Assembly (NCBI RefSeq): GCF_003334815.1
Contig: NZ_QOWO01000062.1
DNA from: Escherichia coli
GTDB taxonomy: Bacteria > Pseudomonadota > Gammaproteobacteria > Enterobacterales > Enterobacteriaceae
Reading direction: 5' to 3' (one strand)
DNA length: 9,739 nt
In this document: positions 8,905 to 8,908 of the stretch, piece after piece
Layout: each line of letters opens with the position of its first letter
How positions within the stretch are numbered: the first letter of the stretch is position 1
Position numbers and translations under genes: made by a program
Notes under the pieces: generated by a model
Database searches by the model: none
What the model saw: only the letters and a program-made list of their open reading frames with translations
Told to the model about the DNA's origin: nothing

Positions 8905-8908
<4 letters not shown>

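Follow-up and report, generated by a model that had tools for sequence, protein, structure and literature searches.

Near-zero spacing of fecI and fecR is conserved across FecIR-type loci and supports translational coupling of the two genes in Escherichia coli

The near-zero spacing between fecI and fecR is, judged by sequence comparison, a trait of the FecIR family that lies far above the genome baseline, as 75 of 82 FecIR-type loci from Gamma- and Betaproteobacteria kept a spacing of −8 to +5 nt, whereas about 24% of the same-strand gene pairs of E. coli lie within −8 to +6 nt (PMC10666635). For the E. coli pair, it appears rather likely that fecR is translated by reinitiation helped by a GGAG motif, which would tie FecR synthesis to FecI synthesis and leave room for some independent initiation. 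The comparative result, namely the spacing, the motif in the enteric orthologues and the distant overlaps that lack it, supports coupling, short of proof.

The window (the whole stretch of 9,739 nucleotides that was analysed) was the fec (ferric citrate) locus of the E. coli K-12 type, lying on the minus strand, and bases 7800–9739 were 100% identical to E. coli chromosomes. The positions of the genes were taken from the open reading frame list and the RefSeq annotation of a 100% identical record, as follows.

9426..8905, minus strand: fecI, ECF sigma factor of 173 aa (translation of the reading frame; 100% match to annotated fecI)
8908..7955, minus strand: fecR, transmembrane sigma regulator of 317 aa (translation of the reading frame; RefSeq annotation)
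7868..5544, minus strand: fecA, starting 86 nt downstream of fecR (reading frame list and annotation)
5499..4597, minus strand: fecB (annotation and reading frame list)
4600..3602, minus strand: fecC (annotation and reading frame list)
3605..2649, minus strand: fecD (annotation and reading frame list)
2648..1881, minus strand: fecE (annotation and reading frame list)

The identities of fecI and fecR in the original prediction were borne out by the identical annotated record; their location on the reverse strand had been left unsaid there. The domains Sigma70_r2 and Sigma70_r4_2 were present in the FecI orthologues, as in an ECF sigma factor with sigma-70 regions 2 and 4. FecR was 100% identical to protein cluster P0002, which carries Pfam DUF4880 (PF16220) and FecR (PF04773), and close relatives additionally carry PF16344 (FecR_C). 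Moreover, the self-cleavage site Gly181-Thr182 (site as in PMC8144685) was invariant in 12 orthologues, and the receptors beside orthologous fecIR pairs had STN, Plug and TonB_dep_Rec domains. By its sequence features, fecIR in the window is a cell-surface signalling pair of the FecI/FecR type, with a sigma factor, a regulator and an adjacent TonB-dependent receptor.

Several other features of the locus were observed. Translation of fecB could start in frame at GTG 5505 or, two codons further on, at ATG 5499 (minus strand); RefSeq takes the ATG. The fecA-fecB spacer (5506-5543, minus strand) held a G+C-rich inverted repeat followed by a T run, GCCCGGCttGCCGGGCtttt, matching the hairpin after fecA that was reported to lower fecBCDE transcription (PMC9249621). 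The annotated ykiE, of 22 codons (9563-9631, plus strand), was encoded opposite to the fec genes; it lay upstream of the promoter region of fecI, immediately ahead of the IS1 end. Insertion-sequence remnants stood on both sides of the fec locus: an IS1F-like element on the plus strand from near 9656 (about 9656-9739 in the window), with its transposase gene starting at 9718, and at the left end (79-983, plus strand) a frameshifted remnant of an IS3-family transposase, with IS30 beyond. These flanking elements fit a mobile or island origin of the locus. The fec locus was present in 2,755 of 5,426 complete E. coli genomes, about half. A segment of 121 nt with the fecI-fecR junction at its centre was carried by 2,778 E. 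coli records, and 2,746 of these, among them K-12 MG1655, had it at 99% identity or more. In addition, 18 E. coli records had a second, divergent fecIR allele with a junction only 60–80% identical (for instance H40, NZ_JCAULH010000002.1 96617-96737, in a 249-kb record, 74% identical); horizontal transfer may have brought in this allele as a second fec lineage.

The junction of the two genes was read directly and was annotated in the 100% identical RefSeq record.

8905..8908, minus strand: ATGA overlap of fecI and fecR (TCAT on the plus strand)

The fecI stop codon TGA occupied 8907..8905 and the fecR start codon ATG 8908..8906, both on the minus strand, so that two bases were common to both codons. 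The shared ATGA of the original prediction was hereby confirmed by sequence and annotation. The start codon of fecR was well supported, since no other in-frame ATG, GTG or TTG occurred upstream of it across the 47 codons back to the upstream stop, and twelve orthologous FecR proteins aligned from the same Met1. The next candidate downstream was TTG at codon 4, and it was rejected together with any alternative start. A database protein of 485 aa (P0003) consisted of FecI joined to FecR. It was rejected as a designed or natural fusion: a frameshift near FecI residue 131 leads into the fecR frame, where no stop codon occurs for 47 codons before the ATG, and destroys sigma region 4. The entry stems either from a mutant or from an error in sequencing. 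Furthermore, many FecR entries of Klebsiella pneumoniae (P0005-P0023 and others) were shorter than 317 aa (264–306, often 297) at 91–94% identity, which suggests recurrent internal deletions or length variation.

As a single case, the fecI-fecR overlap is unremarkable: it belongs to the most frequent kind of gene junction in bacteria, and it is ordinary, known and catalogued in the standard K-12 annotation. The six junctions of the cluster, in order from fecI to fecE, had spacings of −4, +86, +44, −4, −4 and 0 nt, with ATGA at each of the three overlaps.

4597..4600, minus strand: ATGA overlap of the fecB stop and the fecC start (sequence and annotation)
3602..3605, minus strand: ATGA overlap of the fecC stop and the fecD start (sequence and annotation)

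The fecD and fecE genes abutted with no gap at TAAATG (2646-2651, minus strand), a type of junction that is also compatible with coupling. The ordinary character of the overlap follows from these two further ATGA junctions and from the prevalence of −4 in E. coli, where no other spacing is as frequent between neighbouring genes on the same strand (PMC10666635). The fecI-fecR pair was already tabulated as a "−4" pair in the supplement of Huber et al. 2023 (PMC10666635). The same table marks it 'CMPLX not' (no heteromeric complex), unlike the interaction of FecI with the FecR N-terminus reported elsewhere (PMC9249621). A literature search found no paper on translational coupling of fecI with fecR in E. 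coli, and its single match concerned other genes in Cupriavidus. Likewise, a 2022 review of the Fec system does not mention the overlap or translation (PMC9249621). Taken by itself, the overlap has little importance beyond housekeeping.

The spacing was then compared over 79 loci encoding FecR relatives, one per species, together with four orthologous loci and the window. The locus search began from the alignment of close-orthologue FecR proteins and reached homologues down to 29% identity, giving 82 scoreable loci in 26 genera with FecR identities of 29–100%. The starts in the distant loci were placed from their position in the alignment, and the loci are related by descent, so the counts below overstate the number of independent events.

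Spacing −8: 1 locus (Thalassolituus)
Spacing −4: 50 loci (32 GTGA, 18 ATGA)
Spacing −1: 3 loci (Tatumella, L049-L051; TAATG or TGATG)
Spacing 0 to +5: 21 loci (Photorhabdus +1/+2; Pantoea and Erwinia 0 to +3)
Spacing more than +5: 7 loci (Paraburkholderia +11 to +19; one ambiguous Comamonas locus)

At least one locus at −4 was found in 17 of the 26 genera, including Pseudomonas, Bordetella, Delftia, Acidovorax and Methylophaga. The letters ATGA were not conserved, E. coli being in the minority and most close relatives having GTGA; the switch between ATG and GTG starts was a synonymous change in the last FecI Leu codon (TTA or CTG) at constant spacing. The −4 overlap was lost in whole lineages (Photorhabdus, Tatumella and Paraburkholderia). 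In Photorhabdus (L002, L019-L026, L030, L034, L038, L041-L043), TGA was followed by 1–2 nt and then ATG, and the Paraburkholderia loci with gaps of +11 to +19 nt were L063, L064, L067, L068, L070 and L079. An overlap with no function, arising neutrally from drift of starts and stops and a deletion bias, would agree with such losses and with −4 overlaps being very common in bacteria and making up half of the junctions of this cluster, but the near-zero spacing was kept down to 29% identity while the surrounding synonymous sites turned over, and we regard this explanation as highly improbable.

A ribosome-binding motif for fecR was located within the 3' end of fecI.

8917..8920, minus strand: GGAG Shine-Dalgarno motif, 8 nt upstream of the fecR ATG, in the FecI codons Leu169 and Glu170 (CTG GAG)

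The predicted energy of its duplex with the anti-Shine-Dalgarno sequence was −5.9 kcal/mol, and the motif was present in all 31 enterobacterial orthologues having the −4 overlap. The Glu170 codon was GAG in 50 of 52 enterobacterial orthologues, compared with 47% (196/419) for the other FecI Glu columns of the same 52 sequences, Glu170 excluded. Because Glu170 was biased to GAG while the neighbouring Arg, Phe and Gly codons were free to vary in these sequences, the pattern points to selection on the motif itself, kept through synonymous codon choice inside fecI. Among the distant homologues with the −4 overlap, 18 of 19 had no Shine-Dalgarno motif and only one reached −4.4 kcal/mol or lower; their mean duplex energy of −2.2 kcal/mol equalled the background inside the sigma gene. 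The motif-less NTGA pairs came from Pseudomonas, Methylophaga, Bordetella, Delftia, Acidovorax and Pigmentiphaga.

L053, L055, L057-L061, L065, L066, L069, L072-L074, L076-L078 and L081: loci with motif-less pairs, the junction lying near position 1500 of each

For a start inside a coding region and with no motif, reinitiation by the ribosome that has just terminated is probably the only ready explanation, and the regulator of these distant pairs thus probably needs reinitiation.

The motif can also be read in another way, in which fecR is mainly served by fresh ribosomes at its own GGAG and the overlap is compact packing with little effect on the FecI:FecR ratio. The good spacing and strength of the motif and its presence in every enterobacterial orthologue with the overlap fit this reading, and the 30-nt ribosome-binding window is not especially closed, its predicted opening cost of 8.45 kcal/mol being at the 26th percentile of windows in the fecIR mRNA. 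Furthermore, the −4 pair bioBF of E. coli initiates de novo and independently (PMC6728339), and the GGAG could support fully independent initiation in the same manner. The loci of Photorhabdus, Pantoea and Erwinia, and Paraburkholderia manage without overlap. The Fec system was reported to be functional in Photorhabdus luminescens (PMC9249621), which makes the exact overlap dispensable. Against this reading, spacing was conserved more widely than the motif, as the distant motif-less overlaps illustrate, and four of the five native E. coli −4 pairs tested were coupled, mostly with the help of the motif, which there served reinitiation and not independent initiation, bioBF being the exception (PMC6728339). 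In addition, the GGAG bases were predicted to be mostly paired in naked E. coli mRNA, with a probability of being unpaired that ranged from about 0.01 to 0.09 according to the folding model used. On balance, predominant service by fresh ribosomes is possible but doubtful.

For coupling by reinitiation, both genes need to be on one mRNA, and the sequence agreed with this.

9447..9475, minus strand: sigma-70-type promoter-like site upstream of fecI, TTCTCA-17-GATAAT (consensus scan)

This site was the sole minus-strand promoter-like site upstream of fecR and is probably the promoter of the fecIR transcript. An internal promoter for fecR was considered and rejected, as the scan for consensus matches found no sigma-70-like promoter inside fecI on the minus strand. 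Similarly, no terminator-like site was found by the consensus scan within fecI or at the junction on that strand. The lack of an internal promoter-like site was in agreement with the single 1.5-kb fecIR mRNA, Fur-regulated and made with sigma-70 (PMC9249621), and both lines of evidence place fecI and fecR on one mRNA.

The predicted pairing of the motif raised a further explanation, in which a specific hairpin hides the fecR site until ribosomes ending fecI open it for new ribosomes. For E. coli and most orthologues, folding predictions placed the motif bases largely in pairs (probability of being unpaired 0.00–0.57 across orthologues), as such a hairpin would require, but shuffled sequences folded about as well as the junction (z = −0.14 and +0.24), and the GGAG took different pairing partners when longer or shorter stretches were folded. 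Over 30 orthologous junctions, the consensus fold was likewise weak (−5.3 kcal/mol) with no gain from covariation, and no Rfam family matched anywhere in the window. A dedicated hairpin hiding the fecR start was rejected on these grounds. The predicted pairing of the GGAG is more in keeping with the usual background structure of coding RNA than with a dedicated switch, and unfolding of RNA by ribosomes ending fecI is quite unlikely to account for fecR translation.

Reinitiation coupling therefore remains our preferred reading, and we infer both it and its benefit from the overlap, the motif, the conservation of the two, and the absence of an internal promoter-like site or a conserved structure. 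A single Fur-controlled transcript gives both FecI and FecR. The ribosome ending FecI at UGA would sit directly on the fecR AUG and would probably reinitiate there without leaving the mRNA, with the GGAG 8 nt upstream holding it in register. FecR synthesis would then follow FecI synthesis, and the FecI-binding N-terminal domain of FecR would emerge beside a FecI that has just been completed. Fresh ribosomes likely add some independent initiation at the same GGAG, and the outcome would be proportional synthesis of the two proteins. The suggestion of the original prediction that the overlap favours coupling is reasonable and gained comparative support from the spacing and motif data. Its further claim of a fixed ratio of sigma factor to regulator was too strong, because the GGAG permits independent initiation, the efficiency of reinitiation varies by pair, and proteolysis of FecR, by self-cleavage, periplasmic cleavage and RseP (PMC8144685), also resets protein levels. 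This proteolysis counts to some extent against our preferred reading as well.

The geometry found here was the same as that of the reinitiation-coupled −4 NTGA pairs (Huber et al. 2019, PMC6728339; Huber et al. 2023, PMC10666635). Like these pairs, fecI and fecR lie on the same strand with a shared NTGA, have a Shine-Dalgarno motif towards the 3' end of the first reading frame (a typical feature, not an obligatory one), are carried on one transcript, and encode products that bind each other. In contrast to the pairs whose coupling was measured experimentally, fecI-fecR has a coupling that is predicted from sequence. Previous studies showed that coupling drops steeply with distance and collapses at a spacing of about 20 nt (PMC10666635); overlapping coupled gene pairs were reviewed by Brown and Wade 2025 (PMC12548453). 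Operons of ECF sigma and anti-sigma factors that have been called translationally coupled, such as DdvS-DdvA, also resemble fecIR: the sigma gene comes first, the gene of a membrane-bound regulator follows directly at an overlapping or nearly abutting junction, and the same reasoning of balanced synthesis was applied. In fecIR, unlike these anti-sigma pairs, an imbalance would lead to wasted FecI and not to leaky expression. The IutY protein of Pseudomonas putida, a natural fusion of sigma and anti-sigma factor processed by Prc and RseP (PMC9249621), is an extreme form of the same logic, with a 1:1 ratio given by a single polypeptide; unlike IutY, fecI and fecR are two reading frames in different phases.

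The FecR of E. coli is not a plain inhibitor; it is a pro-sigma factor needed for FecI activity (PMC9249621). FecI is inactive without FecR, FecR residues 9–59 stimulate FecI, and residual activity was seen only with highly overexpressed FecI (PMC9249621). Since FecR is needed in this way, coupling probably serves to provide each FecI molecule with a partner, perhaps while it is being made, more than to keep surplus sigma factor silent. A more specific idea, that the junction was selected for co-translational assembly rather than for dosage, seems unlikely to us. If it were true, one ribosome would finish FecI region 4 and then make the FecR N-terminal domain, which would capture the released FecI; this would explain the inactivity of FecI without FecR as well as the many motif-less overlaps outside the Enterobacterales.

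The useful addition of this analysis is a comparative one: the near-zero spacing was much better conserved than either the identity of the start codon or the motif for ribosome binding. For work on these genes, a deletion or tag introduced at the 3' terminus of fecI, or of a homologue, will probably disturb regulator expression. Moreover, because the spacing outlasts the motif and many distant pairs overlap without it, the FecIR family offers a convenient set of natural cases in which to study how synthesis of a sigma regulator depends on reinitiation.
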